DNA of 64,000 nucleotides. Origin: a virus. The first letter of the stretch is position 1. Each line of letters begins with the position of its first letter. The DNA lies in IMG/VR virus record IMGVR_UViG_3300045988_119718, positions 96,001 through 160,000 of that record, one strand, 5' to 3'. Shown here one piece after another: positions 20,131 to 60,012 of this stretch. The notes beneath the pieces were generated by a model. That model saw nothing but the letters and a program-made list of their open reading frames with translations, searched no databases and was not told the DNA's origin. Position numbers and translations under genes: made by a program.

Positions 20131-20499
20131 ATGGTTATTTGTAAACAACAGAATGAGAAAAAAGAAAGGTTAATTGAGTTATTCAATACATCTGCTGAAA
20201 AAGCAAGGAAAGCTAAAGTTCCAGTCACTACAATTACTTTAGGTGGTAAATATAATTGTAAGGTTTTCGGATTTAGCTTAAAAGATAAATATTTTCAAAC
20301 ACATTTCATTGGAGTATGTGCAGATGACCATTGCATCTATTTTATAAGTGGTTCACTGAGTAGCGAGTTAGCAATTAAAAGCCAACTTAATAAAAATGAG
20401 TGGAAAGAAGTAATACAACGCATTATGTTTGAAGCGTTTATAAATGATAAATTAATCAACGCATTTGATAGTACGCCTACAACTGAGTTTAATATGTAA
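20131..20499 (+). CDS. Hypothetical protein (122 aa); tandem paralog of 20528..20902.
   Basis: MVICKQQNEKKERLIELFN.../...DHCIYFI is conserved in both copies. RBS AAGGAGGA. Confidence 0.45.
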   Translation: MVICKQQNEKKERLIELFNTSAEKARKAKVPVTTITLGGKYNCKVFGFSLKDKYFQTHFIGVCADDHCIYFISGSLSSELAIKSQLNKNEWKEVIQRIMFEAFINDKLINAFDSTPTTEFNM

Positions 20500-20527: not shown

Positions 20528-20902
20528 ATGATTATTTGCAGACAGTGTGACGAGAAAAAAGAAAAATTAATTGAGTTGTTTAATGAAGCTGCTAAAAAAT
20601 CAGAGAAAACCAAGGTTCCATGTATTGTTTATCCTTTAAATAAAGGAAAATATAATCGCGAGGTTTCAGGATTTGCTTTAAAAGATACATATGGTAAAAC
20701 ACATATCATTGGAGGATGCATGGAAGACCATTGTATCTATTTTATAACTGATTTACTGGGTATTAAAAAAATAATTAAAAGTCAACTTAGTAAGAAAGAA
20801 TGGGAAACAGTGAGATATATTATTTTTAAAGCATATATGGATAAAGAAATAAACCACGCATTTGATGGTACACCTGTAACTTCCTTCTATAATAACAGAT
20901 AA
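20528..20902 (+). CDS. Hypothetical protein (124 aa); tandem paralog of 20131..20499.
   Basis: Same as the preceding gene. RBS AAGGAGGA. Confidence 0.45.
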   Translation: MIICRQCDEKKEKLIELFNEAAKKSEKTKVPCIVYPLNKGKYNREVSGFALKDTYGKTHIIGGCMEDHCIYFITDLLGIKKIIKSQLSKKEWETVRYIIFKAYMDKEINHAFDGTPVTSFYNNR

Positions 20903-32618: not shown

Positions 32619-33136
32619 GTACAGAAATTATAAACAAAGCTTTATATAGCTTTCCTGTAAAAAATGATTGTACTATTACCCCTATAGTAAAACCTATACC
32701 AACCTTTCAAACTTTAGAATGGCCATTATCTATGCATACTGATATGGATGGTAATAATACATATTTATTTCAAAAAAGCTATGATATAATATTCCCTACT
32801 TGGTGCGAATACGTAAAAATAGAGATGCCTATAATAAAAATAAATGGAGTTGATACTCCATTAAGCACTATTAGTATTACATCAGATTCTAATGTAGTAT
32901 GGTTTGATAATATAACAGAAACAAATAAATTAGTATCTTATGTTAGAGTAACCAGTTATATCGAAAGACCTGATTCTAATAATGTCAATGTTCAATATTC
33001 GTTGATGATTAGTCCTATATCTATTCTTTCTTCTGATAAATATACTATAAAATTTACTATAGGAAATGATATTAACACATATTGTAGAACTAGTCTTTCT
33101 AGTAAAGATATAATCTCAGATATCAAAAATGCATAA
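32615..33136 (+). CDS. Hypothetical protein (173 aa).
   Basis: ORF only. Confidence 0.4.
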   Translation: MSTEIINKALYSFPVKNDCTITPIVKPIPTFQTLEWPLSMHTDMDGNNTYLFQKSYDIIFPTWCEYVKIEMPIIKINGVDTPLSTISITSDSNVVWFDNITETNKLVSYVRVTSYIERPDSNNVNVQYSLMISPISILSSDKYTIKFTIGNDINTYCRTSLSSKDIISDIKNA

Positions 33137-33140
33137 AATA

Positions 33141-33172
33141 TTAGACTAGCTCTTTAATAGAGCTAGTCTAAT
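33141..33172. terminator. Bidirectional terminator.
   Basis: Hairpin TTAGACTAGCTCTTTAATAGAGCTAGTCTAA. Confidence 0.5.
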
Positions 33173-33243
33173 AAGTTGTTGTTAATGTCTTTGATTGAGT
33201 ATATTGCTTCTCTATTTATAGTAGTTTTAAAAATGATTGATTA

Positions 33244-33735: not shown

Positions 33736-36573
33736 TCATTTTTTATTTTTATACTCTATCTCATAATGATCGAAATAGTAACCAGCTTTAGGCTTAGTTG
33801 AGATATTAGCTATTCTATTTCTGATAATAGAATACTTAGTATCAGATACTTTATCTACATTAGTTACGTCTATCTTAGCTTCATTAGCTTCAGAATTATC
33901 TATAGTAATATATACAACATCTGGAACAACTTTAGTAGCACCTATAGTAATATCCTCTGTAACTTGAATAGAAGATACTATATCATGCTTAACTCCATCT
34001 TTACCATAATAATACAAGCTACCAGCTATATAACCATCTTTAATAGATTTAACCGATACTCTGCAATATTTATTATAACCAATAGTAAATTTATTAATAC
34101 CTTTGCTATTAGTTCTAGGAATACCTTCAGCAGTAACTGTAATCAATTCATCTATGGTAGCTTCAATGGTAATATTATATCTTATATCAGTAATCTTAGT
34201 AGAATATATTATAGTATCTTCAGTTACATCTGCTTCAGTTATATTCAATACCCCTTTATTAAACCCTTCTGCAATATAAGTTATTTCAGCTCTTATATGA
34301 GGATATCTAGAGTTTACTACAAATGAGGCTGTATGCGATTCTTCTACACCATCCTTTAAATTATAGACAGTAATAATCTGATTTTGTACCTGATTAATAA
34401 TTACATTGTATTCTTTATAAGATGCAGGAGTAGCAGTTAAAGTAGTATTGCTAGTAATAACTGCTTTAGTAACACTAGGTGTACCTGGAGTATATTTATA
34501 CTTTCCATCTATAGCTTCAGTTCTTACTGTAATTAATGAATACTCAGGTACTTCAAAAGATTCAGTATAAGTTTTACCATTACATTCTACTATAATTCTC
34601 TGATTTGTGTATTTAGTTATATTTACTTTATAAATAGGGATATTAGAGTAGTCTATATCTAAAGAACGTTCTTTATGGGTTAGTATTAATCCATTATTTT
34701 CTTTTCTAATAAGTTCGTTTAATTCATTCATTCCATCAGTATCGAATTCAAAATAATGAGCATAGAAGTCATCTACATTATTGTTTGATAATATCATATC
34801 ATTCAAACCTTCATATTTAACATCTACGACTCTATTTATATTTAGATATGAATCTATAAACTTACTTACTATCTTTTCAGCGTTAATATTTACAGTACAA
34901 TTTAAATCCTTAGATATAATTCTTCTTTTATCTACAGTATAAAAGTCATATAAACTTTTATAACCTTTTGGAATTTTACTATCAAACTTAGATTCTCCAA
35001 AATTAAATGTGCCTGTTACTTTATTATTAAATACACCTTCATCGTGTATAAAGAAATATGGATATTGTATTTTACCATTATCATCTTTATTAAAATCAGA
35101 GAAGTCTATATTCTCTTTGGTGTACTTTAAATTTAGAGAAGCTAGTTTAATACCTTCTATATAAATATCCATAAGATTATTACCTAAATCTAAAGCTACT
35201 CCTATAGTATTCCCTTGTTCTGGAGATATAGAAGTTTCTACATTCTCTAGATAATGTAAATCGTTCTTATCAGAATTTTGCGTAGAATGTCTTACTAAAT
35301 GAAATAAATAAAATCCACCAGAATTATCCAATCCATTAGGAATAAAACAATTACCTCTATATAGATTTACTCTAATAGATTCAGTCATTATAGTATTAGG
35401 ATTAGTAACTTTTTCTTGACTAGGTTCACCTACTAAAGGAACACTAGTTATACCCATAGCAATAGGTATACCTACTATTCTATCCTTTAATTCCCCTTCT
35501 TTAACTGTATATTCAAAGTATACTTTATCTGTAGTAGGTATAGGATAATTTATATATACATTACCACCTACTTTATAAGAGTTCGTAATACCATACTTAT
35601 TATCTTCACCTGTTTCAAAATCATAATCAGCTTTGATATAAGTATTAGCATTCATATTATATTTATTACTTTTAGTAGTAATAAATTCTGGATCATCTGT
35701 TACTAAAGTTAAATTATCTGTATCTGGTTCTAATTCATTTTCTACAGATAATTCTCCATCCCATTGGATACTATAGGGGTTAAATATATCACCACTTATA
35801 TAAACATAGCATGGATTATCATCTGACCCTAATTCTGCATGTATTTCTTGGTCAGCCATACGTTCATAATATGCTTTATATAATGAATCATATCCTGGTA
35901 CTGGATGGGTTAATCCATTCTTACCAAAATTTACATATCCTGAAATATGTTTTAAATCATCCATAGAAGCTATTCTAAAATTATAATCTTCTTCTATATA
36001 TTTATAATTTATATTACTATATATACAAAAATACATATTAGGTTGTTCAGCTAAGTTAAATGGAGGTGTATATGAATAAAATGGTTTATCATATTCTCCA
36101 TCATAAGGATACTCATTGTTATAGTTTACAAACAGTTTAATTTTATTAGTATGATAATCTACTGCTACTCCTATAGTGTCTCCGATACCAGGTTTTCTTG
36201 TTCCTATAACACTATTACCATCAGCATCTATGCTGCTACCATCTATATACAGTACATTATCTGGTATTTCATTAGACAGTATTTCATATCTAGGGTCAGT
36301 TACATCATAGAATAAAGATGATATAGCATAATCTGCTATTAATACACCCAATGAAGGCTCTCTACTAATTCCTACATATAACGGAATGTGTTGTATTTTA
36401 TTTATAGGGTAATAATCAGTTATATTTATTTCAAACATTGTTTTATTTTTAATAGGGAGATTAGCTATTAAAAAGAATGGTTTATCATAATCAAAGTGTA
36501 ACCCATCACTAGATAAAACATTATCTAATGGAGAGCTATTTAAATCATATGACTTCATTAATATATTATTCAT
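33736..36573 (-). CDS. Large structural protein (945 aa) with C-terminal tandem divergent copies of the repeat module; a baseplate or fibre candidate.
   Basis: C-terminal NQIITVYNLKDGVEESHTASFVVNS...AEITYIAEGFNKG and further degenerate copies. Confidence 0.5.
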   Translation of the reverse strand: MNNILMKSYDLNSSPLDNVLSSDGLHFDYDKPFFLIANLPIKNKTMFEINITDYYPINKIQHIPLYVGISREPSLGVLIADYAISSLFYDVTDPRYEILSNEIPDNVLYIDGSSIDADGNSVIGTRKPGIGDTIGVAVDYHTNKIKLFVNYNNEYPYDGEYDKPFYSYTPPFNLAEQPNMYFCIYSNINYKYIEEDYNFRIASMDDLKHISGYVNFGKNGLTHPVPGYDSLYKAYYERMADQEIHAELGSDDNPCYVYISGDIFNPYSIQWDGELSVENELEPDTDNLTLVTDDPEFITTKSNKYNMNANTYIKADYDFETGEDNKYGITNSYKVGGNVYINYPIPTTDKVYFEYTVKEGELKDRIVGIPIAMGITSVPLVGEPSQEKVTNPNTIMTESIRVNLYRGNCFIPNGLDNSGGFYLFHLVRHSTQNSDKNDLHYLENVETSISPEQGNTIGVALDLGNNLMDIYIEGIKLASLNLKYTKENIDFSDFNKDDNGKIQYPYFFIHDEGVFNNKVTGTFNFGESKFDSKIPKGYKSLYDFYTVDKRRIISKDLNCTVNINAEKIVSKFIDSYLNINRVVDVKYEGLNDMILSNNNVDDFYAHYFEFDTDGMNELNELIRKENNGLILTHKERSLDIDYSNIPIYKVNITKYTNQRIIVECNGKTYTESFEVPEYSLITVRTEAIDGKYKYTPGTPSVTKAVITSNTTLTATPASYKEYNVIINQVQNQIITVYNLKDGVEESHTASFVVNSRYPHIRAEITYIAEGFNKGVLNITEADVTEDTIIYSTKITDIRYNITIEATIDELITVTAEGIPRTNSKGINKFTIGYNKYCRVSVKSIKDGYIAGSLYYYGKDGVKHDIVSSIQVTEDITIGATKVVPDVVYITIDNSEANEAKIDVTNVDKVSDTKYSIIRNRIANISTKPKAGYYFDHYEIEYKNKK

Positions 36574-36651: not shown

Positions 36652-37812
36652 TCATAAAGCTAAATTCTGATTACCTGATAAGAATCTTTTAGAATAGTAA
36701 TCTAAATTAAATTCTCTAGTATCTTTATCTAAATATTCTCTACTAATATACTTATCAAAACATTCTTTTTCAATATCATAGATGACTTTTCTAGATATAC
36801 ATTTATTGTATGAGTTAAATATGTATCTAGTTTCTAATGGGCATTCTGTGCAATATGAAACATGATTACACTGAATACATCTATCAATGTTTTCATTTAA
36901 AAGATTAGTATATAGATTAGTAAAATTAGACATTGATTTAGAATCAAACCCAGTAGAAATATTTCCTAGTACTAAATCATTATTATTATCTAATAATCCA
37001 TCTATTTCTTTTAAAAGTAAACATGGATAAATATCCCCATTAGGCACTACCATAAACATCTTTCCGATATATCTGCATTTATGGTCATAAATAAAATCAG
37101 GGTTTATAAATTTATTATAAATCATATATGTAAGATTATCCAAATCAAAATCATACTGATTATACAGCATATATATTTTATGCAGCTGATGTATAAAGAT
37201 AGTTTTAAACTCTTCAGTATTATAATATTTAGAGTATTCATCATTAAAAATAAAATAGTAAGATAACTTCTTACACCCTTGTTCTAGTGCATATTGAATA
37301 GAGTCAGCTAAATAACAAATATTGTCTTTAGTAACTGCTATAGCTATCATAACTTCATTATTATACTTAGAACAGCCTACTTTATCAACAATAGTAGACA
37401 ACTGTTTATCAGTAAGATGAGTTTGGGCTATTTCAGAAGCATGAATACCATCCCATGATATTTTAACTGATTCAGGAGAAATTATCTTTATTAAATCATT
37501 CATAATAAAGTTGTGATTAGTACCATTAGATACTATACCAATCTTAACTGTTGTATCTTTATATCGCTCAATCTTTTTTAACTCTTTGCATAGATTATAA
37601 AGCTCATTAGGATATATAGTTATCTCTCCCCCTAATAAGTTTATATATAACTTAGGGCCGATATTTAAGGTCTTTAAAAACTCTACCAGCTCTTTGCCTT
37701 TATTGAATACATTGTGCCTAGACCTAGAGTTATTAGTCTCAAAGCAATATTTACAATTCAAATTACAATAGTCATTAAATTTTATCCCTAAGAAATCAAT
37801 TTGCTCATACAT
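36652..37812 (-). CDS. Radical SAM / SPASM-domain enzyme (386 aa), putative peptide maturase number 3.
   Basis: Radical-SAM cluster motif CNLNCKYC (CxxxCxxC). C-terminal SPASM-like cysteines: C..GDIYPC ... CIQCNHVSYCTECP. Confidence 0.7.
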   Translation of the reverse strand: MYEQIDFLGIKFNDYCNLNCKYCFETNNSRSRHNVFNKGKELVEFLKTLNIGPKLYINLLGGEITIYPNELYNLCKELKKIERYKDTTVKIGIVSNGTNHNFIMNDLIKIISPESVKISWDGIHASEIAQTHLTDKQLSTIVDKVGCSKYNNEVMIAIAVTKDNICYLADSIQYALEQGCKKLSYYFIFNDEYSKYYNTEEFKTIFIHQLHKIYMLYNQYDFDLDNLTYMIYNKFINPDFIYDHKCRYIGKMFMVVPNGDIYPCLLLKEIDGLLDNNNDLVLGNISTGFDSKSMSNFTNLYTNLLNENIDRCIQCNHVSYCTECPLETRYIFNSYNKCISRKVIYDIEKECFDKYISREYLDKDTREFNLDYYSKRFLSGNQNLAL

Positions 37813-38992
37813 TTTTCATACCTAATAGCTTAATAAAATTGCTTACTAATTCGGCTTCTTCATCATTTTTCTGTATTGCTTCTATATTATTAATTCTATT
37901 AAAAGTATAATTATCCATCTTAGTAGTGGAGATATCAGTAGATAATGCAAACTTCAAATCTTCTGGTGAAGTATTAATAATCTTACCATTTAAAATTTTT
38001 TCATTATTAATTGCAATAGTAGCATATTTTCTTAACAATACTGCATACTTAATAACTTTAGATCTATCATAATAAGATAATCCTCTAAGAAGAGTCGGCA
38101 TATTGGTAAGACCATCATTGAACAAGTCGATGATCTTGTTCAATAATTTTTTACAAGTTGTAATTCTTTCTGCTCTATTTGTATTACTGATAGAAAATAA
38201 TAAGTACATCAGCATAGTATCACAGAATCTGAGATAACCATAGTTATACTTCTTATATTGATAATCTCCTATTTCACTATATAAGAAATTATCAAGCTTA
38301 TTATACAAATCCTGAAGATCTATTTTAATTCTATTATCTTCTAAAAGTTGATTGATATTATGAATATAGAAGCATACCCAATCACAGAATTGGGAGTTAA
38401 TATTATCTTTATCACTAGAATACTCTAAAGTCTTATTATAATACTTTTTAATAGTATTCATGCATTTGGATGTAATATCTTCTTCTGACATAGAATTTGT
38501 AATAAAGTCTTTAGAGATACTGTCTATAAGAATCTTGTAAGCAATATAGTTATAATAAATAAATTTACTATAGTTTTTAGATTCATGAGATTCAAAATAT
38601 TTAATAAAGGTTTTCATATAAGAGAAATAAACATCTTTTTTATTAGAATCATTAAAATCTATAAATGCAATTAATAATGCTAAATAGTTTTCATCATCTA
38701 ATGCTTTAGTATTATGAATATATTCTTCTCCAATAAAATCTTTACTAATTATTTCAAATTCTTGAAGTAAAATTGGTTCATTTTTTAATGATTCTTCAAT
38801 AGAAGATTTAATATCAGAGTATACTTTCTTATTATCTTCATTTTCTATAAACAAAGAAGAATATTTAATATATTCTTCAAATGTAGTAAAAGAATTATAT
38901 TTATCAGATAGAGCGTTAAGTTTATCTATTACATCAGATACTTTATTCTCTAATATATAATTATAAATTCTTTCTGGTAAAAAATATATCAT
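37805..38992 (-). CDS. Hypothetical protein (395 aa) embedded in the radical-SAM cluster.
   Basis: ORF. Translationally coupled to its neighbours. Confidence 0.4.
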   Translation of the reverse strand: MIYFLPERIYNYILENKVSDVIDKLNALSDKYNSFTTFEEYIKYSSLFIENEDNKKVYSDIKSSIEESLKNEPILLQEFEIISKDFIGEEYIHNTKALDDENYLALLIAFIDFNDSNKKDVYFSYMKTFIKYFESHESKNYSKFIYYNYIAYKILIDSISKDFITNSMSEEDITSKCMNTIKKYYNKTLEYSSDKDNINSQFCDWVCFYIHNINQLLEDNRIKIDLQDLYNKLDNFLYSEIGDYQYKKYNYGYLRFCDTMLMYLLFSISNTNRAERITTCKKLLNKIIDLFNDGLTNMPTLLRGLSYYDRSKVIKYAVLLRKYATIAINNEKILNGKIINTSPEDLKFALSTDISTTKMDNYTFNRINNIEAIQKNDEEAELVSNFIKLLGMKNV

Positions 38993-38993
38993 A

Positions 38994-40046
38994 TTAAACC
39001 TCCATATCTACATTATTAACCTTATATAACCAATTCTTATATCGCATAATTATTTTATAAAGTTCTGCTAATTCTTCATGATTAAGACTTGCTAAATATT
39101 TAGTAATAAGATTATCATAAACTTTCATAAGTTTACATGTTTCTGGTAAATAATTATCTAACCATTTATCACCAAACTTTAGCATTCTTTCATATCTACA
39201 TCCACCATCGCAAAGGTAAAAATATTTACAATTTTCTATCTGACAATCTTTACTGGTACAACGCTTCTGTATTTTATCAAAGTCTTCATATTTCTGTTCA
39301 GTAAATGCGATAGAAGTGCATGATGACATAGTTTTATCTGTAAGATAAGACTGTTCTTTACCTGCTGCGCATGACTGCATTGGTGCTCTATTAATATATG
39401 CCATTATCTTATTAAGATTTTCTGTATATGGATGCTCTAATGTACCTTCAAAAGTACAATAAAGATTCTCTTCTAAATCTTTAAACCATTGATCGTCATG
39501 GTCTTCACCTCTAGCAATACAGTATTGACCATTAATATGAAACTCTTTATCTAATCTATGGAATAACTTATTAAGTCTAGGTATATCTTTTACATTAGCA
39601 TTATTAATTACAGTCTTAATATCAAAGTGGTCTAGTCCTTCAGATATAGCATAATTAATATTATTCAATACTCTATCGGCAATACTTCTACCAGAAGTAT
39701 CTACTCTAGAATCTTTAAATCCATCCCAAGAAATTTGTAATTCTATATGCCATTTCTTTTGGAACTTAATAAACTCTTTCCAATTAGCCATACTAGAAGT
39801 TATAACTTGAAAGTTCATTTGATCGTGATACTTTTCTAAGGTGTATTCCATTAAGTCTAATCTCATTAATGGTTCTCCACCAAAGAATACCACTCTATTT
39901 GGTTTATTTTGCTCTATACACTCATCTATATCTTTTTCTGTAAGACAATCATTATTATACTTGATATAACAATAATGGCATCTATTAGGACATTGATTGG
40001 TTAAAAATAAATATATTTCTTTATACATTAGAATCCACCACCACAT
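38994..40046 (-). CDS. Radical SAM / SPASM-domain enzyme, putative peptide maturase number 2. The start is probably MYKEIYLF at 40031.
   Basis: CPNRCHYC (CxxxCxxC), FFGGEPL, and a C-terminal Cys cluster: CAAG...C...CTSKDCQIENCKYFYLCDGGC. Confidence 0.7.
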   Translation of the reverse strand: MWWWILMYKEIYLFLTNQCPNRCHYCYIKYNNDCLTEKDIDECIEQNKPNRVVFFGGEPLMRLDLMEYTLEKYHDQMNFQVITSSMANWKEFIKFQKKWHIELQISWDGFKDSRVDTSGRSIADRVLNNINYAISEGLDHFDIKTVINNANVKDIPRLNKLFHRLDKEFHINGQYCIARGEDHDDQWFKDLEENLYCTFEGTLEHPYTENLNKIMAYINRAPMQSCAAGKEQSYLTDKTMSSCTSIAFTEQKYEDFDKIQKRCTSKDCQIENCKYFYLCDGGCRYERMLKFGDKWLDNYLPETCKLMKVYDNLITKYLASLNHEELAELYKIIMRYKNWLYKVNNVDMEV

Positions 40047-40519
40047 TTCTTATCATGACATGTACCACCATGGCATGATTGGCAAGATATTTGGCAAGTA
40101 GACTGACAAGATGCTTGACATACAAGTTTGCATGGGCCTGCCCAATAATCATCAGACTTAGAATTCATTTGCTGTAGTAAAAGTTTTGCTATATTATAAA
40201 TAATACCTATATCATTAGCTGTAATTATTTTTTGTTTTTGAACTTTATTGTTGATATCTTTTAATTGATTATAGTTTGCTGAAGTAGTTCTAGAAAGCTG
40301 TGTAATAGTTTTACTATAACCATTACCACCTTTTCTACTTATTTCGTTATCAGTAACAGCATTAATAGAATCTAATTCTGTAATATTTGTAAGCAAACAA
40401 TTTATCGTATTATTAAAGAAATCATTTGTAATGAAATGATCTTTAGCAGGAGAATCTGGTAAATAATATTTTACAGATTGTCTAATTACTTCTGTAGCCA
40501 TTAGAAACCACCCCCACAT
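40028..40519 (-). CDS. Cys-rich precursor protein B (about 157 aa from MATEV...) with a SCIFF/ranthipeptide-like C-terminal core, LVCQASCQSTCQISCQSCHGGTCHDKKCGGGF.
   Basis: Seven Cys with C-x3-C spacing at the extreme C-terminus. The core is identical to that of precursor A. It lies immediately upstream of a radical-SAM/SPASM gene. Confidence 0.65.
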   Translation of the reverse strand: MWGWFLMATEVIRQSVKYYLPDSPAKDHFITNDFFNNTINCLLTNITELDSINAVTDNEISRKGGNGYSKTITQLSRTTSANYNQLKDINNKVQKQKIITANDIGIIYNIAKLLLQQMNSKSDDYWAGPCKLVCQASCQSTCQISCQSCHGGTCHDKKCGGGF

Positions 40520-40911
40520 TTCTTATCATGACATGTACCACCATGGCATGATTGGCAAGATATTTGGCAAGTAGACTGACAAGATGCTTGACAGACTAAT
40601 CCACATGTACCATTGTTATTCCAATATTTCCAAGAATGTTCTTGCAATACATTGGAAATAGATTTACATAAATTATATATAGCTTTAGCATCATCTGCTT
40701 TAATAACATCACCTTGACTGATTAAGCTAATAATAGAATGAACAGTTTTAGGAACACCAATTCTAGAATATTCTATAATCTGTTTCTTTCTATATTCGTC
40801 TTTCTCTAATTCATCTATATTAGATAACATAGTCTCAATCATGTTATCATAAATAGTCTTACTAGAATTGACTAAATTATAGTGTATACCATTATTTACT
40901 ATCTTTTCCAT
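40501..40911 (-). CDS. Cys-rich precursor protein A (136 aa) with the identical C-terminal core, LVCQASCQSTCQISCQSCHGGTCHDKKCGGGF.
   Basis: Same as precursor B. The N-terminal roughly 100 aa are unrelated to precursor B. Confidence 0.65.
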   Translation of the reverse strand: MEKIVNNGIHYNLVNSSKTIYDNMIETMLSNIDELEKDEYRKKQIIEYSRIGVPKTVHSIISLISQGDVIKADDAKAIYNLCKSISNVLQEHSWKYWNNNGTCGLVCQASCQSTCQISCQSCHGGTCHDKKCGGGF

Positions 40912-42322
40912 TATCTTCTACACCACCTTTATTATTCAATGAATATAAAATCATAGTCATAAGAATTTCAGATTTCTTTCTAAAGTATTCTTCAAATGTA
41001 GGGAATACATTATCAGAACCCAAATTATTAATCATTTCTTTAAGATGAATCAATCTAAGCTTTAATGCAAAAGTATTAGATAAATCCGCAGTATCCATAA
41101 TCATATCGATATACTTCTTAATCTCTAAATTAGTCTTAAGAATATTTAAGTATCTACTTCTAATATTAGTAGCATTAAGAATCTCAGCTTGCTTAATAAT
41201 AATTACATCGGTCATAATCTTATGAAGATCACAATAAGATTGTAAGACTTTATTCTCATCACCATTTTCTCTAAGGTTTTCTTCAGGGCAACCATTCTTA
41301 CAATTTCCTTTAGCTTTACAAGTTTCACATTCTTCTTTTTGATATACTGCTTGTTTTTCTTTTCTATCAGTATGGACTTTGGTTTCATCTACGTCAGTAT
41401 AGATATTACCAATCTTCTGTACTAATTTAATTTCATCCTTAGAAGTTGGTAATTGATGGCATGGATAGATATCCCCATTATAATCAATAGTACACCATTT
41501 ATTCAATCCAATAGGGCAAAGTAAATCATCAGATACTTCTGGTTCCATAACCTGTCTCATAAAGTCATCTATATTCTTAATAGCTATATTTCTCTTAGAA
41601 CCTTCTTCATTAAGTTTATCGACATACATATCCACTAATTCAATATAGTTTTCTTTATAGTCATTCAGTTGTTCTTCTGTCCACTCTACATCAGTTACTG
41701 GCATAGGACAAATAGAATCTATTCCTAAAGTATTTACTAAGTAATCTACACCATCATACATATACTTTGCATCTTCTGGTAAGATAGTCATTCTAGCTTC
41801 AATAAATACTTTCAATCCATTAGTAATAAGAATCTTTAAGTTCTTTACTACTTGATTCCATGAATTAGAACGGTTCTTATCATGAACATGTTTAATACCA
41901 TCAATAGATACTAATAAACCAATATTATTATCATCTACGTATTGAATGAAGTCTTTTGGCAAGAATGATAAGTTAGTAGTCATACCATAATCTACTAATC
42001 TATGATGCTTATTATTATCATCTATAACTGCTTTAATACATTCCCAATTCAATAATGGCTCTCCACCAAAGAAATTGACTTGGAACCTTCTATTAAAACC
42101 AGATAAATCATTATATGCCAGTCTCATAGCATCTACTGCTACTTCTGGCTTCATATATTTTTTATTTTTATCTTTTTCAAAACAATAGATACATTTAAAA
42201 TTACAATCATTAGTAATATCCAATGTGATAGAATCACAATCATAGACTTCTCTAAATGGTTTCATAATTATTCCTCCTAAAAAATAAATTATTATAATGT
42301 AAAAAAGATTATTAGTAGCCAT
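40892..42322 (-). CDS. Radical SAM / SPASM-domain enzyme, putative peptide maturase number 1. The start is probably MKPFREVY.
   Basis: CNFKCIYC (CxxxCxxC), FFGGEPLL, and a SPASM cluster: CPIGLNKWCTIDYNGDIYPCHQL...CETCKAKGNCKNGCP. Confidence 0.7.
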   Translation of the reverse strand: MATNNLFYIIIIYFLGGIIMKPFREVYDCDSITLDITNDCNFKCIYCFEKDKNKKYMKPEVAVDAMRLAYNDLSGFNRRFQVNFFGGEPLLNWECIKAVIDDNNKHHRLVDYGMTTNLSFLPKDFIQYVDDNNIGLLVSIDGIKHVHDKNRSNSWNQVVKNLKILITNGLKVFIEARMTILPEDAKYMYDGVDYLVNTLGIDSICPMPVTDVEWTEEQLNDYKENYIELVDMYVDKLNEEGSKRNIAIKNIDDFMRQVMEPEVSDDLLCPIGLNKWCTIDYNGDIYPCHQLPTSKDEIKLVQKIGNIYTDVDETKVHTDRKEKQAVYQKEECETCKAKGNCKNGCPEENLRENGDENKVLQSYCDLHKIMTDVIIIKQAEILNATNIRSRYLNILKTNLEIKKYIDMIMDTADLSNTFALKLRLIHLKEMINNLGSDNVFPTFEEYFRKKSEILMTMILYSLNNKGGVEDNGKDSK

Positions 42323-42350
42323 ATAAACGGCTACTAATATTTTCTACTAA

Positions 42351-42962
42351 TTATTCTTCATCATCATCATCTTTATGCTCACGAATATAAATAGCATTCC
42401 CTCTGATGGTATCTCCACCAGAACGCCATTCATCTCCATCTTTAAGAATAGCTAAATCCCATCTAGTAATACCATCACTAGGCTGTGGATCAGACCATAC
42501 TGCATATGGTTCATGAAGATACAATCCATCTTCATTATCAGCAGCTTCACCATGAGTCATAATTCTATCTAAATCAATAGTTAAATCTAAAGCATCTGCT
42601 GCTGCTTCAGTCAATGCACATAAAGACCAAATCTGAGCATCAGTTGGGGGGTATGGCCCTAAGTCATATCTACCATCTGGCCAGCACATAGCATTATAAG
42701 CACAACAAAGAGCTATTGCAATAGATCCAGAGTTTCTCTTATATGTAGCAGCTACAGGCTCATTTACATCGCCAGTATAATGAATATTACCTTCACCATC
42801 AATACAGAAATTATAGTCATCATAAACGTTCGTATAATTATCAGCAGTCCAGTGTAAATAAATTTTTGCGTCTCTATCATACGCTTTAGCGTTTTCCCAA
42901 ATATAAGAATATGCATCAGAAATAATTTGCTTAGCTTCTTCTATAGATACTATTCTATCCAT
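42351..42962 (-). CDS. N-acetylmuramoyl-L-alanine amidase (Amidase_2 / T7-lysozyme-like); an endolysin or virion lysin candidate.
   Basis: IYLHWTAD, NSGSIAIALC and THGEAAD align to the T7 lysozyme motifs IFVHCSAT, NHNSIGVCLVGG and AHHEVAP. Confidence 0.65.
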   Translation of the reverse strand: MDRIVSIEEAKQIISDAYSYIWENAKAYDRDAKIYLHWTADNYTNVYDDYNFCIDGEGNIHYTGDVNEPVAATYKRNSGSIAIALCCAYNAMCWPDGRYDLGPYPPTDAQIWSLCALTEAAADALDLTIDLDRIMTHGEAADNEDGLYLHEPYAVWSDPQPSDGITRWDLAILKDGDEWRSGGDTIRGNAIYIREHKDDDDEE

Positions 42963-44918: not shown

Positions 44919-45674
44919 TTATGATACTATAGTGTATTGTGATGCAGATAATCCAGCACCATCGAATCCTGCTGGTGGATTCTTAATCTTAACATTTCTA
45001 AGTTTATGAGAATAGTTAAACATTTCATTCCAATGCTTGCATGATTTCATATCAATTACACCTTTAATGGTAGTAAGATTATAGCATTTATAGAACATCA
45101 AGACCATATCAGTTACTTTAGAAGTATCAAAATTAGATATGTTCAATGTGGTAAGATTATCACAGTTAGAGAACATAGAGGCCATACTTTCTACATTAGA
45201 AGTATCGAAGTTGGATAAGTCTAACGATGTAAGATTACGACAATCCCAAAACATACCTTCCATAGTATACACATTAGAAGTATCAAAGCTAGATACATCT
45301 AATGAAATAAGTTTAGAGCAGTTAGAGAACATAAATTCCATATCTATTGCATTAGAAGTATCGAAATTAGATACGTTTATTGAAGTGAGTTTAGGGTGAC
45401 CATAGGCATTTTTAAACATACCTTCCATAGTATATACTTTAGAAGTACTAAAATTAGATAAGTCTAATGAAGTAAGATTATCAGTGCAGTGACCAAACAT
45501 ATAGCTCATACTCATTACAAAACCATCACATGTAACTGTAGCTTGACCTGGGACTGATGTATCTATTTTATCCACACAGGATTTATCATCCCAATTATCA
45601 TTATACCATGGACTAGAACCTTTAGCTATAAAAATTTGATCTTTGAAGGCTGCATAGCTAACAGTAATAGTCAT
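44919..45674 (-). CDS. BspA-type leucine-rich-repeat receptor-binding module (251 aa). As sequenced it is a separate ORF lacking an N-terminal anchor domain.
   Basis: Tandem LRRs (LTSLDLSNFDTSNV..M..MF). Collinear with the C-terminal half of ORF 1..1008. There is no Shine-Dalgarno site other than the G-tract itself. Confidence 0.55.
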   Translation of the reverse strand: MTITVSYAAFKDQIFIAKGSSPWYNDNWDDKSCVDKIDTSVPGQATVTCDGFVMSMSYMFGHCTDNLTSLDLSNFSTSKVYTMEGMFKNAYGHPKLTSINVSNFDTSNAIDMEFMFSNCSKLISLDVSSFDTSNVYTMEGMFWDCRNLTSLDLSNFDTSNVESMASMFSNCDNLTTLNISNFDTSKVTDMVLMFYKCYNLTTIKGVIDMKSCKHWNEMFNYSHKLRNVKIKNPPAGFDGAGLSASQYTIVS

Positions 45675-49224: not shown

Positions 49225-50529
49225 ATGGCATACTTAAAGACATTGTGGCTTGTTGACGGTATTAGAAATAAACTGTACAAATATGAAGATAATGAATTAC
49301 AGCAAGAAAGTTATACCATTCCTGTTGTAAATACATGTGTACCAGTTGGTGATTGTAAGGTCTTAGTTTCAACTGACCAATCCAATGTATACATCTTATC
49401 TCCTACTGGATATTTATTTAAGTTTAATACCAAAGCAGAAACCTTCGTTAAAACTATTCGTCTTACTGATGGTTCTTCTGGTATAGCTCAAGGTGTTTTA
49501 CATGAGTGTAACACTTCACCTATTTTCGTCTCTAACTATAACGAAAATACAGTATCTGTAATCATGGATGACACTATTAAATATGATATTCCAGTTGGTT
49601 TAGGCCCTACAAATATCATAGTAGATAGTAATGGGTCAGCATATGTTTGTAATAGTATCGAAAATACTATTTCCATTATTTCTTACCAAAACTGTAAATA
49701 TATATGCTATAAAAAGATTAGATTACTTTCTAATCCTATAGACGTATGTGTTGATAAGCATAATACTTTATATGTATTATGCAAAGATTCTAAGATATAC
49801 AAACTTATGGCTAATGATAAATCATGCAAACGTTTATCATTTGACGTAGGAGAACAGCCTAGTGCTATTACTGTAGATAATCAAAATAATATTATCGTTA
49901 CAAACTATGGTGAAGGAACTATTACTATTATTGATCCAAACTCTATTATTAAAACAGTTGGATTACAAGAATTCCATCCTATAGCGGTAGATGGTGATAT
50001 TGACGATAATATCTTTGTAATTACTTCTCATAATATTATCATTGAGATCAATCAGGCTGGTAGAATTATTAATAAATTCTATGCTAATATTCCAGCATCT
50101 ATTACTACATTAAATGACTTTACTGGTATGAAAACCAGTAAGGCATTATATGCTGCTAACAATCCTGGTGGCAAACCAACTACCAAAGATGACCTTGATG
50201 AATTAAAAAAACAACTTGATAATAAAATTCAGAATTATCCTAATAAGGATGCATTCCCATATCCATCATCTAATCCAGACAGTAAAGCTCTGTATATTGA
50301 TGATGAAAATGGAACTATTTATAGATTCGATAAAGATAAAAAAGAATACAAAGTTCTATACGGAACTAGTATAGTAAATGCTAGATATGATGATAGTTCT
50401 GAAACATCATTGTCATTAGTATCAGTTAATGGCACTGTAAAACCATTAGAACTCAAGGATATTACTAATACCGTTTTATCTAAATATAATACAATCTTGG
50501 ATTCTGAGATTGATAAGGTGTTTGAATAA
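49225..50529 (+). CDS. YVTN/NHL-type beta-propeller repeat protein (434 aa); a receptor-binding or fibre-associated candidate.
   Basis: Repeated ~40-aa units (..YVCNSIENTISIIS.., ..IIVTNYGEGTITIIDPNS..). RBS AAGGAGG. Confidence 0.5.
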   Translation: MAYLKTLWLVDGIRNKLYKYEDNELQQESYTIPVVNTCVPVGDCKVLVSTDQSNVYILSPTGYLFKFNTKAETFVKTIRLTDGSSGIAQGVLHECNTSPIFVSNYNENTVSVIMDDTIKYDIPVGLGPTNIIVDSNGSAYVCNSIENTISIISYQNCKYICYKKIRLLSNPIDVCVDKHNTLYVLCKDSKIYKLMANDKSCKRLSFDVGEQPSAITVDNQNNIIVTNYGEGTITIIDPNSIIKTVGLQEFHPIAVDGDIDDNIFVITSHNIIIEINQAGRIINKFYANIPASITTLNDFTGMKTSKALYAANNPGGKPTTKDDLDELKKQLDNKIQNYPNKDAFPYPSSNPDSKALYIDDENGTIYRFDKDKKEYKVLYGTSIVNARYDDSSETSLSLVSVNGTVKPLELKDITNTVLSKYNTILDSEIDKVFE

Positions 50530-50530
50530 A

Positions 50531-50570
50531 ATGGTTATTATTAATATATATACATAACCATATTTTTTTA
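50531..50570 (+). terminator. Rho-independent terminator.
   Basis: Hairpin ATGGTTAT...ATAACCAT followed by T8. Confidence 0.4.
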
Positions 50571-50589
50571 TAAAAGGGGACATACAATT

Positions 50590-51831
50590 ATGCCAGAAAC
50601 TAAATATTTTCTTGATGCGGCTGGTTTAGCTCGTTTTAAAACAAAGCAGGATGCAGCTAATGAAGGCAAATTCTTAGGTATTAATGCTAAAGCTAAGACT
50701 GCTGGTGCAGCAGATACCGCTGCAAAGCTTGCTGCTGCTGTAGCTATCAACGGTGTACTCTTTGATGGTTCTAAGGCTATTACTATTGAAGATGGCACTA
50801 AGCTTTCTCTCGCTGATGCTGAAAAGCTTTATCTCAAGAAGGCTACTGCTGATACCACCTATCTTCCGCTCCATGGTACTGCCGATAAAGCAACCAAGCT
50901 TGCTAATCAGGTAAAGATCAATGGTGTACTCTTTGATGGCTCTGCTGATATCACTGTAGAAGATGCTACCAAGTTACCGCTCCATGGTAAGGCTGATACC
51001 GCTGGTACTGCTGACACTGCTGCTGAAGCTACTCATGCTGCTGCCGCAGATACTGCAACCAAACTTGCAGCTGCTGTAACGATTAACGGTGTTGACTTCG
51101 ATGGTTCTAAAGCTATCACTATCAATGCTGTAGATTCAACTGCTCGTATCGCTGAATCTGAGAAGGGTGTTGCAAACGGTGTTGCTACCCTTGATACTGC
51201 TGGTAAGGTTCCGGCTGCTCAGTTACCGTCTTACGTTGATGACGTAAAAGAATATGAAAACAAGGCTGCTTTCCCTGAAACTGGTGAAGCTGATAAGATT
51301 TATGTAGATATTGATACCGGTAGCATTTATCGTTGGTCTGGTACGCAGTATATTCAGATTAATACTTCTGTAGCATCTGCTGATACTGCTGTCAAACTTG
51401 CAACGGCTCGCAAGATTGCTGGTGTTCCGTTTGATGGTTCTGCTGATATCACCATTCCGGCTGGTAACGTCGGTGCTTTCACCAAAGAAGAAACCACTAC
51501 TACCTTCCTTTCCAAAGCTGATGCTACGACTACTTATGTTGCTATTACTCCAGGCAAAGACCTCTCTGATAACAACTTCACGACTGAACTTCTCACCAAA
51601 CTTAACGGTATTGAAGAAGGTGCTAACAAGTATGATCTTCCGCAGGCTTCCTCTACCACCCTCGGCGGTGTAACGGTTGGCAGCAACATTACCGTAAAGA
51701 CTGGTACTATTTCTTTAGCTAAGGAAAATGTAATTGCAGCTCTCGGTTATACTCCGTCTGATTCCGCAGCAGAAGTACCGGTAGAAGCTATTTCCGATAC
51801 CGAAATCGATAAGCTCTTTGCTACTGAATAA
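50590..51831 (+). CDS. Tail-fibre protein (413 aa) with classical phage tail-fibre repeats (ATKLA..V.INGV.FDGS..ITI).
   Basis: At least 5 copies of the K(L)A..V.INGV.FDGSA.IT motif. GC content and codon usage are noticeably different from neighbouring genes. Confidence 0.55.
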   Translation: MPETKYFLDAAGLARFKTKQDAANEGKFLGINAKAKTAGAADTAAKLAAAVAINGVLFDGSKAITIEDGTKLSLADAEKLYLKKATADTTYLPLHGTADKATKLANQVKINGVLFDGSADITVEDATKLPLHGKADTAGTADTAAEATHAAAADTATKLAAAVTINGVDFDGSKAITINAVDSTARIAESEKGVANGVATLDTAGKVPAAQLPSYVDDVKEYENKAAFPETGEADKIYVDIDTGSIYRWSGTQYIQINTSVASADTAVKLATARKIAGVPFDGSADITIPAGNVGAFTKEETTTTFLSKADATTTYVAITPGKDLSDNNFTTELLTKLNGIEEGANKYDLPQASSTTLGGVTVGSNITVKTGTISLAKENVIAALGYTPSDSAAEVPVEAISDTEIDKLFATE

Positions 51832-51868
51832 TAAATAATTATATTTATGAACTAGCAAAGGAGGATAT

Positions 51869-52375
51869 ATGGCAAGTGCTACACCAATTATCACTATTTG
51901 TGATAGGGATGATAGAGAAATCAGTTCTCCTTGGGGAGTAGGAACCTTAGATGTAAATAATGGCTCTGCTGTACCTCAGTCCGAAACTAAGGAAATCCAT
52001 ATATGGAATAATAAGGGTGGCATTGAAAGTGCAGCTGACTTAGTAAGTTCTTATATCACCACTAAGAATATTAATGGTGATAACTTGAATGAACAGTTAG
52101 TTACTGATAAATGGGTACAAGCTAATTATAAGAATGAATCTATCTCAGCTCTTAACGGCTTCCATGCTATTGGTGGGGATGATATATTAGAAATTTGCTC
52201 TGATAGTGCTACTGGTATAGACAAAGAAAATCATGTAATTTCTGGTACTGCTAACTCCGGTTCTACAACTGATATGTCTAACTTTGCTACTGTTCGTTTA
52301 AAAGTAGTTCCTAAAATAAATGCATTAAAAGGTCTACATCAGTTTAAAGTAAGAATATCAGGGTATTATACTTAA
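51869..52375 (+). CDS. Hypothetical protein (168 aa).
   Basis: ORF with RBS AAGGAGG. Confidence 0.4.
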   Translation: MASATPIITICDRDDREISSPWGVGTLDVNNGSAVPQSETKEIHIWNNKGGIESAADLVSSYITTKNINGDNLNEQLVTDKWVQANYKNESISALNGFHAIGGDDILEICSDSATGIDKENHVISGTANSGSTTDMSNFATVRLKVVPKINALKGLHQFKVRISGYYT

Positions 52376-58755: not shown

Positions 58756-60012
58756 TCACTTCTTTAATCCGAATGCTTTCCATACATCTATTTCATGAAG
58801 TTTAACTGTAGAGTCATGGAATGCCTTTAATGCTTTAAGCTTTAATGCTGATGCTACTTGTGGCATAGCAACACCAATATCTTTAAATCCCGCTCTATAG
58901 AATAGATTTCCTGCACATACATTACAAATCTTATTAGGTTCTTTATATTCACATAAAGAAGAGAATCTCATTCTAACTGTTTTACCTAAATATTTATCTT
59001 TATTAGTAGAATTCAATTCTATAAGTTTATTTCCTTCTACTATATAAGAATACATCATAAGTTTAATATTATACTTATCTAATGTAATTTCTATAGTTCT
59101 CTTAGTACCACAATCAGTTCCTTTAGGAGCTAAAGTAAGATGCTGAAATGCTCTTAATAATAGTTTTTCATTGTACCCGCCTTCAGGGGTCTTCTTAGAT
59201 CTAGAATATGGGCCAGCTGCTAATGCTTTAGCTAATTTAGAATAATCATCTCTAGAAATACCATCAATGTAACTTGACATAGCTACGTCATAACCCTTAG
59301 TAGGGTCTGGGTCTTTAATAGCACCTTTCATTACAAAGATATTTTTAAAGTTATTAGCAAAAGAACCTTTAGCTTTGGAATCATACATATCCATAGATAT
59401 ATCATCTTTAAGTTCTTTTTTAGCATAGTCTAATAATTCTTTTTCTATCTTATCCGCAGCATACATATTTCTTTCTGGATCTGCTAATTCATCTGCATAT
59501 TTCTTTTCTAATTGTTTTTTCATTTTATCAATCTTATAAGAAATAGTAAGCATGTTTGTAGTAAATCCAGAGCATAGTATATTACAATAAGGCTGGAATT
59601 TCTGCTGTCTCATTAAATATCTTTTTAATGCAGACAATGGTAATCTATCTTCCATAATAGCATATGAAATCTGATCATTCATATCGCCTAATACATCTTT
59701 ATTTATAGGCTTATTGATATAATGGAATAAATCAAATAAGTCTTGTTCTATAAAACACTTATTGAACCACCATCTACCTAAAGTAGTAGTAAAAGTATTT
59801 TTATTCTTCTTATTACCAATACCATAAGAATTAGGTGGAATAGTAATAATATCATATGTATTATACTTTGGTGCTTTACCATTTAAAGTACCAAAAGTTT
59901 CCATAAGTTTAGAAAGAGATTCTACATCTTTTTGAGATAAATTTAAAAAATAATCTACTTCATCTTTGTTTGTAATCTTTCTAGCAACACGTTTGTTAGT
60001 AGATACTGCCAT
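58756..60012 (-). CDS. Hypothetical protein (418 aa).
   Basis: ORF with its own RBS AAGGTGG inside the 3' end of the HNH gene. Confidence 0.4.
   Translation of the reverse strand: MAVSTNKRVARKITNKDEVDYFLNLSQKDVESLSKLMETFGTLNGKAPKYNTYDIITIPPNSYGIGNKKNKNTFTTTLGRWWFNKCFIEQDLFDLFHYINKPINKDVLGDMNDQISYAIMEDRLPLSALKRYLMRQQKFQPYCNILCSGFTTNMLTISYKIDKMKKQLEKKYADELADPERNMYAADKIEKELLDYAKKELKDDISMDMYDSKAKGSFANNFKNIFVMKGAIKDPDPTKGYDVAMSSYIDGISRDDYSKLAKALAAGPYSRSKKTPEGGYNEKLLLRAFQHLTLAPKGTDCGTKRTIEITLDKYNIKLMMYSYIVEGNKLIELNSTNKDKYLGKTVRMRFSSLCEYKEPNKICNVCAGNLFYRAGFKDIGVAMPQVASALKLKALKAFHDSTVKLHEIDVWKAFGLKK

Follow-up and report, generated by a model that had tools for sequence, protein, structure and literature searches.

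The window analysed here is a 64,000-nucleotide (nt) stretch of viral DNA (positions 96,001 to 160,000 of IMG/VR record IMGVR_UViG_3300045988_119718). At window positions 36652-42322 it carries a cluster of six minus-strand genes encoding three radical S-adenosylmethionine (radical-SAM) enzymes, two small carrier proteins that share a cysteine-rich C-terminal tail, and an all-helical protein. This module does not look like an ordinary cluster for a secreted peptide but like a phage-specific, undescribed system for the cross-linking of protein tails: with moderate confidence, we propose a phage-specific protein-modification system in which radical-SAM/SPASM-type enzymes act on the C-terminal module of the carriers.

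The six genes run in the same direction with near-zero intergenic space, in the order (from 42265 to 36652) rSAM1, carrier A, carrier B, rSAM2, a helical protein of 395 amino acids (aa), and rSAM3. The five open reading frames (ORFs) of the original prediction, which comprised three enzymes and two precursors, are all present on the minus strand and their coordinates hold, except that the starts of rSAM1, carrier B, and rSAM2 lie downstream of those listed. The listed sizes of 476, 136, 163, 350, 395, and 386 aa consequently become 457, 136, 157, 344, 395, and 386 aa, and the same sequences have been recorded by independent gene callers in public assemblies. The features of the cluster are as follows:

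40892..42265, minus strand: rSAM1, radical SAM/SPASM enzyme, 457 aa, CteB/PapB/QhpD-like (the listed ORF runs to 42322)
40501..40911, minus strand: carrier A, 136 aa, with a helical N-domain and a Cys/Gln-rich tail (20-nt overlap between its start and the rSAM1 stop)
40504..40626, minus strand: tail module of carrier A, YW-NNNGT-C-GLV-CQAS-CQST-CQIS-CQSC-HGGT-CHDKKC-GGGF
40028..40501, minus strand: carrier B, 157 aa, paralog of carrier A (the listed ORF runs to 40519)
40031..40132, minus strand: tail module of carrier B (the last 32 aa are those of the carrier A tail)
38994..40028, minus strand: rSAM2, divergent radical SAM enzyme, 344 aa, SPASM-like C-terminus (TAATG overlap with carrier B)
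37805..38992, minus strand: helical-repeat protein, all-alpha, 395 aa, conserved partner
36652..37812, minus strand: rSAM3, radical SAM/SPASM-like enzyme, 386 aa, CX2CX5CX2C variant

The most likely rSAM1 start is at 42265 (MKPFREVY), as in all homologs; those of carrier B begin MATEV. The carrier A start at 40911, which overlaps the rSAM1 stop, is preceded by AAAGGTGGTG. The starts of carrier B (40501) and rSAM2 (40028) each fall at the A of the preceding TAA (TAATG stop/start overlap), with the GGGGGTGG codons of the GGGF ending forming the Shine-Dalgarno/ribosome-binding site for both genes. The carrier genes are predicted to be translationally coupled to rSAM1 and rSAM2. IMG lists both carriers as "hypothetical protein" and gives rSAM2 and rSAM3 the product name "radical SAM protein with 4Fe4S-binding SPASM domain".

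A portable tail and its conserved neighbourhood

In IMG/VR, 126 sites were confirmed with the tail alignment, and we retrieved 80 loci and annotated them by local ORF calling and phmmer with the window proteins. A radical-SAM gene lies within 500 nt upstream of 72 of the 73 tail genes that have at least 1.6 kb of upstream sequence (the sole exception is a second carrier inside the same cluster) and within 5 kb downstream of all 67 that have at least 5.5 kb of downstream sequence. At 60% identity, the tail proteins fall into 12 clusters, two of them fragments, and represent approximately 10 phage lineages; because it is seen in this many lineages, the arrangement would appear to recur beyond chance. 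The usual order is rSAM1, the carrier or carriers, an optional helical protein, rSAM2, a helical protein, and one or two more radical-SAM genes, with five radical-SAM genes in some lineages. No peptidase or transporter was found inside the clusters of these lineages, where the extra ORFs are HNH homing endonucleases or more radical-SAM genes. HNH/NUMOD4 homing-endonuclease genes stand between carrier and rSAM2 in several lineages (L007:8292-9164, L084:8333-9214, and similar). The radical-SAM neighbourhood of Phass-1, which is recoded, yielded no Cys-rich substrate.

The family of the 395-aa protein, collected with an iterated hidden Markov model (HMM), comprises 130 ORFs in 86 loci at two conserved positions, with one to three copies per cluster. 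The AlphaFold2 (AF2) model consists entirely of helices (predicted local distance difference test [pLDDT] score of 61), and a Foldseek search of it against PDB returned generic helical repeats only (best E = 0.2). We infer an accessory scaffold or chaperone. LanC-like and peptidase identities were considered for this protein and dropped, as there was no motif or match.

The tail itself proved to be far more widespread than the two carriers of this phage. Word-indexed searches with the carriers and with the tail alignment recovered only 20 close clusters and only six short proteins, respectively; an exhaustive profile search of 1.84 billion representatives recovered 106 proteins (46-1940 aa), 30 of them below 1e-10. 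Most of the 106 match only the last ~75 profile positions, which correspond to the final amphipathic helix and the tail, and this match is always at the extreme C-terminus. Approximately 90 representatives of 71-950 aa bear the tail, and 91 of these give the consensus W(W/F)-D-x-N-G-x-C-x3-CQ(V)x-CQxx-CQ(L/V)(S/A)-CQxC-x4-CH(N/D)Q(N/K/H)CG, followed by two to four residues. In an alignment of 40 tails, eight Cys and one His are invariant, and Gln follows Cys 2, 3, and 5 in at least 90%; after Cys 4, Gln is found in about three quarters of representatives. The repeats have the form C-[Q 91%, M, E, L]-[V/T/L/I]-[S/A/G/T]. Five Cys at a spacing of four are found in 86 of 96 representatives, this phage included, and the CQxx arrays as a whole range from 4 to 37 Cys (9, 14, 15, and 37 also occur). 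Expanded arrays (9, 14, 15, or 37 Cys) are seen among proteins P0145, P0144, P0163, and P0165 and locus L086:6885-8105; in P0145 (323 aa), C-[Q/E/M]-x-x repeats extend over ~145 residues.

The proteins that bear this tail are diverse. Many have the N-domain of the window carriers ("MANRG.V.Y.EP ... NLNERDSI ... QLSGI") with large inserts, and the N-terminus of another subfamily is different. A galactose-binding-like domain that matches PHROG 17517 "tail protein" (2.1e-13 and 4.8e-10) is found in two large carriers, and weak F5/8 type C Pfam matches are present in two large carriers, one of which also has the PHROG match. The suspicion that the cores sit on protein-sized carriers, and that these may be cross-linked proteins instead of diffusible peptides, is thereby strongly reinforced, as the tail ends proteins of up to 950 aa in relatives of this phage. 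No conserved double-Gly or other cleavage motif was found ahead of the first Cys. These searches point to a portable C-terminal module that is placed on many different phage proteins.

A degenerate DNA pattern for the tail end, run against one genome from each of 185,579 species, gave five sites: two are chance matches without an ORF and three are on phage-like contigs binned in metagenome-assembled genomes (MAGs). One of these contigs is 283 kb in length with 25% GC and encodes rSAM1, a carrier of 534 aa, and a radical-SAM enzyme whose gene bears an intein. There was no credible tail-motif match on a bacterial chromosome in this set. Because only phage-like contigs or chance sites were found among these genomes, the module appears to be restricted to phages. 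The intein of the 283-kb contig (L090:120-1793; Intein_splicing 1.5e-11, Hint) lies near the N-terminus of a radical-SAM/SPASM gene downstream of the 534-aa carrier.

Carriers A and B are paralogs, with 39% identity over their full length (E = 7e-31), contrary to the original prediction that their N-terminal regions are unrelated. That prediction also gave them an identical 33-aa tail with seven Cys: the tail is indeed identical in both, but the identical stretch is 32 aa (LVCQ...GGGF) and the module has eight Cys, one of them two residues upstream. The last 90 nt of the two genes differ at only two positions. In the five genomes that have both paralogs, the A and B tails within a genome differ at 2-14 of 90 nt; orthologous tails between genomes differ at 9-21 of 90 nt (four genomes with tails of equal length). 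Lineage-specific endings are common to both paralogs (GGGF vs. GW and CH..KKC vs. CY..KHC). The tails of the paralogs thus seem to evolve in concert, by gene conversion, co-adaptation to shared enzymes, or both. In locus L001 (10421-10783; also L002 and L003), paralog B is 120 aa in length and ends in "...KSDWR*", and rSAM2 begins 5 nt later; because this paralog has no Cys tail, the N-domain can be said to persist without one. The carriers have no significant Pfam, NCBIfam, or PHROG family, and a Nif11/NHLP leader identity for the N-domain was dropped as there is no Pfam match. Against GenBank phages, tblastn with carrier A, P0161, and P0159 gave no match.

The radical-SAM enzymes and their characterized relatives

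The CxxxCxxC motif that was predicted for all three enzymes is present in each (NDCNFKCIYC in rSAM1, NQCPNRCHYC in rSAM2, and DYCNLNCKYC in rSAM3), and its Cys are kept in the orthologs of all three. Each enzyme also passes the Pfam Radical_SAM model (PF04055), with scores among the three of 54.5, 49.6, and 36.8 bits against a cut-off of 29.5; the E-value for rSAM2 is 6.7e-13.

In rSAM1, the conserved Cys are residues 21/25/28, followed by 250, 269, 313, 316, 322, 326, and 345. The latter seven fit the SPASM motif, CX9-15GX4C ... CX2CX5CX3C ... C with two auxiliary clusters (PF13186 / TIGR04085), as C250, C269 (GDIYPC), C313-X2-C316-X5-C322-X3-C326, and C345, and all seven are 100% conserved in orthologs of 41-89% identity. 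Residues 31-373 align to residues 98-444 of CteB (PDB 5WGG), every SPASM Cys included (phmmer 8.6e-27), and there is no counterpart of the first ~97 residues of CteB, an N-terminal region of the RiPP recognition element (RRE) type (RiPP, a peptide made by the ribosome and modified post-translationally). Six residues in proximity to the catalytic site of CteB (F112, F152, T186, S210, H363, and Q364) predict QhpD-like ranthisynthases (PMC10288494). At the aligned positions, rSAM1 has F-F-T-S-H-Q, identical to CteB (mapped with a PDB chain numbering offset of +3 inferred from motif position), as do most of its orthologs, some of which have H-N or P-D at positions 5-6. The best NCBIfam models for rSAM1 are PapB (1.6e-61; 208 bits vs. 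340), the QhpD type (3.2e-41), the SCIFF maturase (4.7e-38), and the CXXX-repeat maturase (3.4e-28). From its sequence, rSAM1 is evidently a canonical SPASM enzyme that is nearest to PapB, QhpD, and the SCIFF maturase, in keeping with the idea of SPASM-type maturases with ranthipeptide-like partners. In GenBank phages, tblastn with rSAM1 found matches of 23-27% identity only.

The other two enzymes are more divergent. rSAM2 has eight C-terminal Cys that are conserved in orthologs (CX4CX5CX3C plus three or four further Cys), and its C-terminus matches the SPASM region of DarW at 4.2e-7. rSAM3 has seven C-terminal Cys in the window copy (GX4C plus CX2CX5CX2C), of which C246, C264, C321, and C324 (four of the seven) are kept in distant orthologs, together with the upstream C180. 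Its NCBIfam matches are PapB (6.2e-22; 78 bits), the CXXX-repeat maturase (2.3e-15), and SPASM TIGR04085 (25.8 bits vs. 27), and it also matches phrog_1802 (8.1e-23). The prediction of C-terminal SPASM Cys clusters in all three enzymes therefore stands in part: it is borne out by the CteB alignment of rSAM1, and rSAM2 and rSAM3 have C-terminal Cys clusters of which only some Cys are kept in distant orthologs and which may be of SPASM type. The Pfam SPASM score is slightly under the gathering threshold of 21.5 for both rSAM1 (18.2) and rSAM3 (20.2), and rSAM2 has no SPASM HMM match. The catalytic-site profiles are unlike that of CteB (Y,F,?,S,A,A in rSAM2 and F,L,?,S,L,L in rSAM3), and both enzymes give weak scores with many families, among them sactisynthases, cyclophane formers, and the anaerobic sulfatase maturase. 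Positions 5-6 are A-A and L-L, and the chemistry of rSAM2 and rSAM3 need not be the same as that of rSAM1.

Compared with known systems, the cluster would seem to work like SCIFF/CteB, PapA/PapB, QhpC/QhpD, and the CXXX-repeat system without reaching any of their family score cut-offs. The known SCIFF systems used for comparison were CteA/CteB and Tte1186a (TIGR03973/TIGR03974). Likeness to these lies in the C-Q-x-x-C-Q-x-x-C type of Cys spacing in the core and in rSAM1, which aligns over both the radical-SAM core and the full SPASM domain and has the same six catalytic-site residues. SCIFF membership, as originally suggested, is not borne out by HMM searches: the carriers score 14.8 bits against TIGR03973 (cut-off 50) and 14.3 against PF13165 (cut-off 27), and rSAM1 scores 131 bits against the maturase model TIGR03974 (cut-off 425) in an alignment that starts at model position 98. 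The SCIFF model is touched by three of 40 family tails at E <= 0.1, all far below cut-off. The predicted phage substrates are proteins of 136-950 aa with at least eight Cys, whereas SCIFF peptides are ~45 aa with six Cys; the phage system has three to five enzymes rather than one, rSAM1 lacks the N-terminal region of CteB described above, and the genes are in phages rather than on clostridial chromosomes.

The freyrasin system PapA/PapB (NF047865) provides the best curated model for both rSAM1 (208 bits) and rSAM3 (78 bits), builds a repeated ladder of small thioether rings from a repeated Cys motif, and has a model without a separate N-terminus of RRE length; the rSAM1 score, however, does not reach the cut-off of 340 bits. 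In PapA, the motif C-x3-D supplies Asp as the acceptor (PMC8326336, PMC12373016). In the phage tail, by contrast, position i+4 is the next Cys and not Asp, and the conserved partner is Gln at i+1 / i-3. QhpD is a SPASM radical-SAM enzyme that forms beta/gamma thioethers from Cys to Asp/Glu, and the subunit on which it acts remains a protein (PMC8326336). The QhpC/QhpD model (TIGR03906) is second best for rSAM1, with 141 bits against a cut-off of 453, and rSAM1 has the six-residue signature of QhpD-like ranthisynthases, which rSAM2 and rSAM3 lack. The differences from QhpC/QhpD are that there is no dehydrogenase context, that motif and carrier are unrelated, and that the system is phage-encoded with multiple enzymes.

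In the CXXX-repeat system of Syntrophobotulus (TIGR04115 / TIGR04117), which is itself uncharacterized (no paper on it was found), the target has a Cys at every fourth residue, as in the phage tails. TIGR04117 is touched by 14 of 40 tails (best E = 3.9e-4) and TIGR04115 is matched by rSAM1 and rSAM3, but the scores are 18.2 vs. 50 for the target and 99 and 57 vs. 350 for the maturase, and only the phage family has the invariant C-x4-CH(D/N)QxCG cap and the helix before it. Lastly, Asn20 of NxxcA is linked to Cys23 through its beta carbon (PMC8326336), so that in NxxcA/NxxcB a carboxamide acceptor stands three residues before the donor Cys: N-x-x-C there, Q-x-x-C and (N/D)-Q-x-C in the phage tails. 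NxxcA has a single ring in a short streptococcal peptide, and the likeness noted here is one of motif register. No report of Gln as an acceptor was found in the literature searched.

Five distinctions set the phage system apart from these relatives: it is phage-encoded; it has an invariant tail with a CH(D/N)QxCG cap; the tail stands on proteins of many sizes; there are three to five paralogous enzymes and a helical partner; and the repeat number is variable. Literature searches on phage ranthipeptides, jumbo phage SPASM, phage RiPP radical SAM, and CXXX repeats found no description of the system. Phage biosynthetic-cluster surveys deal mostly with temperate-phage bacteriocins (bioRxiv 10.1101/2020.10.01.322628).

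Proposed mechanism and alternative explanations

The view that the enzymes and tails form one functional unit is well supported by these comparisons, with the helix and tail together being the probable unit of recognition and modification. The translational coupling, the near-universal radical-SAM adjacency, and the co-varying paralogous tails strongly suggest that the tails are the enzyme substrates. In the mechanism that we propose, the helix just upstream of the tail would be a leader-like recognition element, and rSAM1 would abstract a hydrogen atom from a side-chain carbon and join this carbon to a Cys sulfur, giving non-alpha thioether rings as in ranthipeptides and QhpC. Thioether formation by rSAM1 is moderately supported, by family similarity and by active-site identity with CteB. 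The candidate acceptor is the Gln, or Asn/Asp, three residues before each Cys: a carboxamide or carboxylate occupies Cys -3 in up to four consensus places (as Q-x-x-C ahead of Cys 3, 4, and 5, and as (N/D)-Q-x-C at the end). The position after Cys takes Q, E, M, or L only, all with an unbranched beta-gamma chain, a restriction that fits either an acceptor role or a helical constraint. rSAM2 and rSAM3 may add further cross-links or another modification, with the 395-aa protein acting as the accessory scaffold or chaperone.

The product would stay on the carrier protein and not be cut out and exported. The occurrence of tails on large proteins, the tail-protein-like central domains, the lack of a protease or exporter, and the fibre/baseplate neighbours lend weak support to such retention and to a structural or adsorption-related role. 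The role that we favour is that of a tip or anchor of a virion-associated protein, hardened so as to resist proteases and redox conditions, because the carriers of relatives hold receptor-binding-like domains and the cluster lies among baseplate, fibre, and adhesin genes. A more specific form of this proposal, that a clade of jumbo phages staples the tails of its own virion proteins (baseplate, fibre, adhesin) by a Cys-to-Gln thioether ladder tunable from 4 to more than 30 rings, is put forward as a tentative and rather doubtful possibility.

Several observations weigh against the proposed system. All enzymes score below every curated equivalog cut-off, and the tails match the SCIFF and CXXX-repeat models only weakly. 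The carrier N-domain profile found nothing significant in PDB, Pfam, or PHROGs, and the 395-aa protein has no Pfam, NCBIfam, PHROG, or PDB sequence match, so that neither resembles a known structural phage protein; the virion role is assigned from gene neighbourhood and from nothing else. The AF2 model of carrier A (19-sequence alignment) gives no confident fold, with a pLDDT of 54.6 overall and 31-43 in the tail; the N-domain is a low-confidence beta-hairpin plus helices and the tail is unstructured, and the model was not used for a fold search. One lineage (three samples) keeps paralog B without any tail, so not every carrier needs one, and the first of two carriers at L008:6612-8177 has a degenerate cap ("...CQDCQYYTAHNQNSGGWV"; Cys7 to Ala, Cys8 to Ser). 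Finally, the carriers of this phage, at 136 and 157 aa, hold just the helical N-domain and the tail, which would also fit a classical long-leader RiPP.

In such a RiPP, the N-domain of ~100-120 aa would be an NHLP/Nif11-like leader, and a core of ~35 aa would be cut by a host or unrecognized protease to yield a bacteriocin, signal, or anti-competitor peptide released at lysis. Two tandem precursors with identical cores beside ranthipeptide-maturase-like enzymes, the local likeness to the SCIFF core, and the listing of SCIFF ranthipeptides with a quorum-sensing role (PMC8326336) are all in its favour, and phage lysis would remove the need for an exporter. We nevertheless consider it unlikely: the same tail ends proteins of 300-950 aa that have domains of their own, the ~10 lineages have neither peptidase nor transporter, no double-Gly or other cleavage motif is conserved before the first Cys, paralog B persists without a tail in one lineage, and the N-domain has no Nif11/NHLP Pfam match. 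In another alternative, the enzymes would perform other radical chemistry on the tail (Cys-to-formylglycine/dehydro conversion as in anSME, sactionine [S-C-alpha] formation, C-C cross-links, or epimerization), with ranthipeptide thioethers absent or one of several marks. The CteB-unlike profiles of rSAM2 and rSAM3, their weak scores to many families, and the five radical-SAM genes of some lineages would suit this, but rSAM1, which is universally adjacent, has the full CteB profile and its best matches are thioether formers, and the substrate is dominated by Cys; this explanation appears improbable.

We regard as very improbable a further explanation, in which the tail is a self-folding metal-binding domain (Zn or Fe-S, eight Cys and one His) or a disulfide-knotted domain, and the enzymes act elsewhere on nucleotides, DNA, or a cofactor. 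The invariant eight Cys and one His at fixed spacing are typical of metal sites, and phage radical-SAM genes of unassigned role are common (e.g., phrog_1802). AR9/PBS1 phages have unusual DNA, which in relatives would offer another substrate, the link to this phage being computed through the large terminase (TerL) only. Set against these points are the near-perfect adjacency and translational coupling of tails and enzymes across lineages, and the enzymes, which are most like peptide and protein maturases, not nucleotide-modifying radical-SAM enzymes. Arrays of 4 to 37 CQxx units would also be easier to reconcile with a ladder of repeated rings than with one discrete metal site, and the conserved Gln/Glu/Met after each Cys has no obvious role as a ligand.

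Radical-SAM thioether chemistry has so far been associated with small bacterial peptides and one bacterial enzyme subunit; the proposed system would place it in a conserved multi-enzyme module of lytic-type jumbo phages, acting on a portable C-terminal tag with which evolution has equipped many different proteins. Confirmation of the links would open a phage chapter for RiPP and radical-SAM biology, possibly with a new acceptor (Gln), and might account for the way in which phages of anaerobes toughen their exposed proteins where proteases abound and conditions are reducing. Thioether ladders linked through Gln on virion proteins, if real, would represent a new type of cross-link and the first case in which radical-SAM enzymes cross-link structural proteins of a virus. 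In practical terms, a compact encoded tag (~60 aa plus enzymes) could be used to staple arbitrary proteins. The module also illustrates a blind spot, in that peptide-centred genome mining overlooks protein-sized substrates and seldom examines viral contigs.

The phage and the surroundings of the cluster

The window encodes a large terminase (TerL, 8941-11139), a DNA polymerase, a helicase, and two split phiKZ/AR9-type RNA polymerase beta subunits (14980-17115 and 58756-60012), in agreement with the assumed phage origin of this DNA. It has a GC content of ~29% and no tRNAs. TerL is nearest to those of the Bacillus jumbo phages AR9, PBS1, and Goe21 (37-39% identity), followed by those of Staphylococcus (S6-type) jumbo phages (32%), and identical proteins sit on contigs of ~252-268 kb. 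Judged by these genes, the source is an uncultured AR9-like jumbo phage of ~250 kb; its host is probably a low-GC Firmicute, from the gut or the mouth. The cluster DNA had no megablast matches in GenBank phages. Many related contigs are IMG/VR entries with identifiers resembling Human Microbiome Project samples. An "uncultured Solobacterium sp." MAG includes a 5-kb contig (CALISH010000122.1; L087) that encodes rSAM1, the helical protein, and a carrier of 572 aa; this may be either mis-binning or a hint of the host.

The cluster is bordered by the following features:

42310..42339: terminator-like hairpin, stem of 13 bp and then a T-run (minus strand)
42351..42962, minus strand: Amidase_2 peptidoglycan hydrolase, immediately upstream (Pfam 1.3e-7, phrog_5867 4.2e-26); adjacent only in close relatives, context
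33736..36573, minus strand: 945-aa neighbour with a weak SPRY match, immediately downstream; adjoins the cluster only in close relatives, context and not core

This hairpin, which separates rSAM1 from the amidase gene, marks where the transcription unit is bounded upstream. The cluster had been placed between tail-fibre genes and the amidase, and its position next to such genes is correct: its neighbours include a Gp10_C baseplate protein, a DUF285/BspA-type leucine-rich repeat (LRR) protein, a tail-fibre protein, and the amidase. The LRR protein (44919-45674) is 251 aa in length, matches DUF285/BspA-type repeats at 1.8e-35, and has an adhesin-like surface fold.

Elsewhere in the window, a perfect bidirectional terminator-like hairpin with a 15-bp stem (33139-33173) lies at the junction of the minus-strand block with the plus-strand genes, which end at 33136. 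A local GC peak at 50001-52000 (0.39 vs. ~0.29) coincides with a 413-aa tail-fibre-like gene (50590-51831). Two tandem paralogous ORFs of ~123 aa (20131-20499 and 20528-20902; MVICKQQNEKKERLIELFN... and MIICRQCDEKKEKLIELFNE...) are located right behind the DNA polymerase gene.

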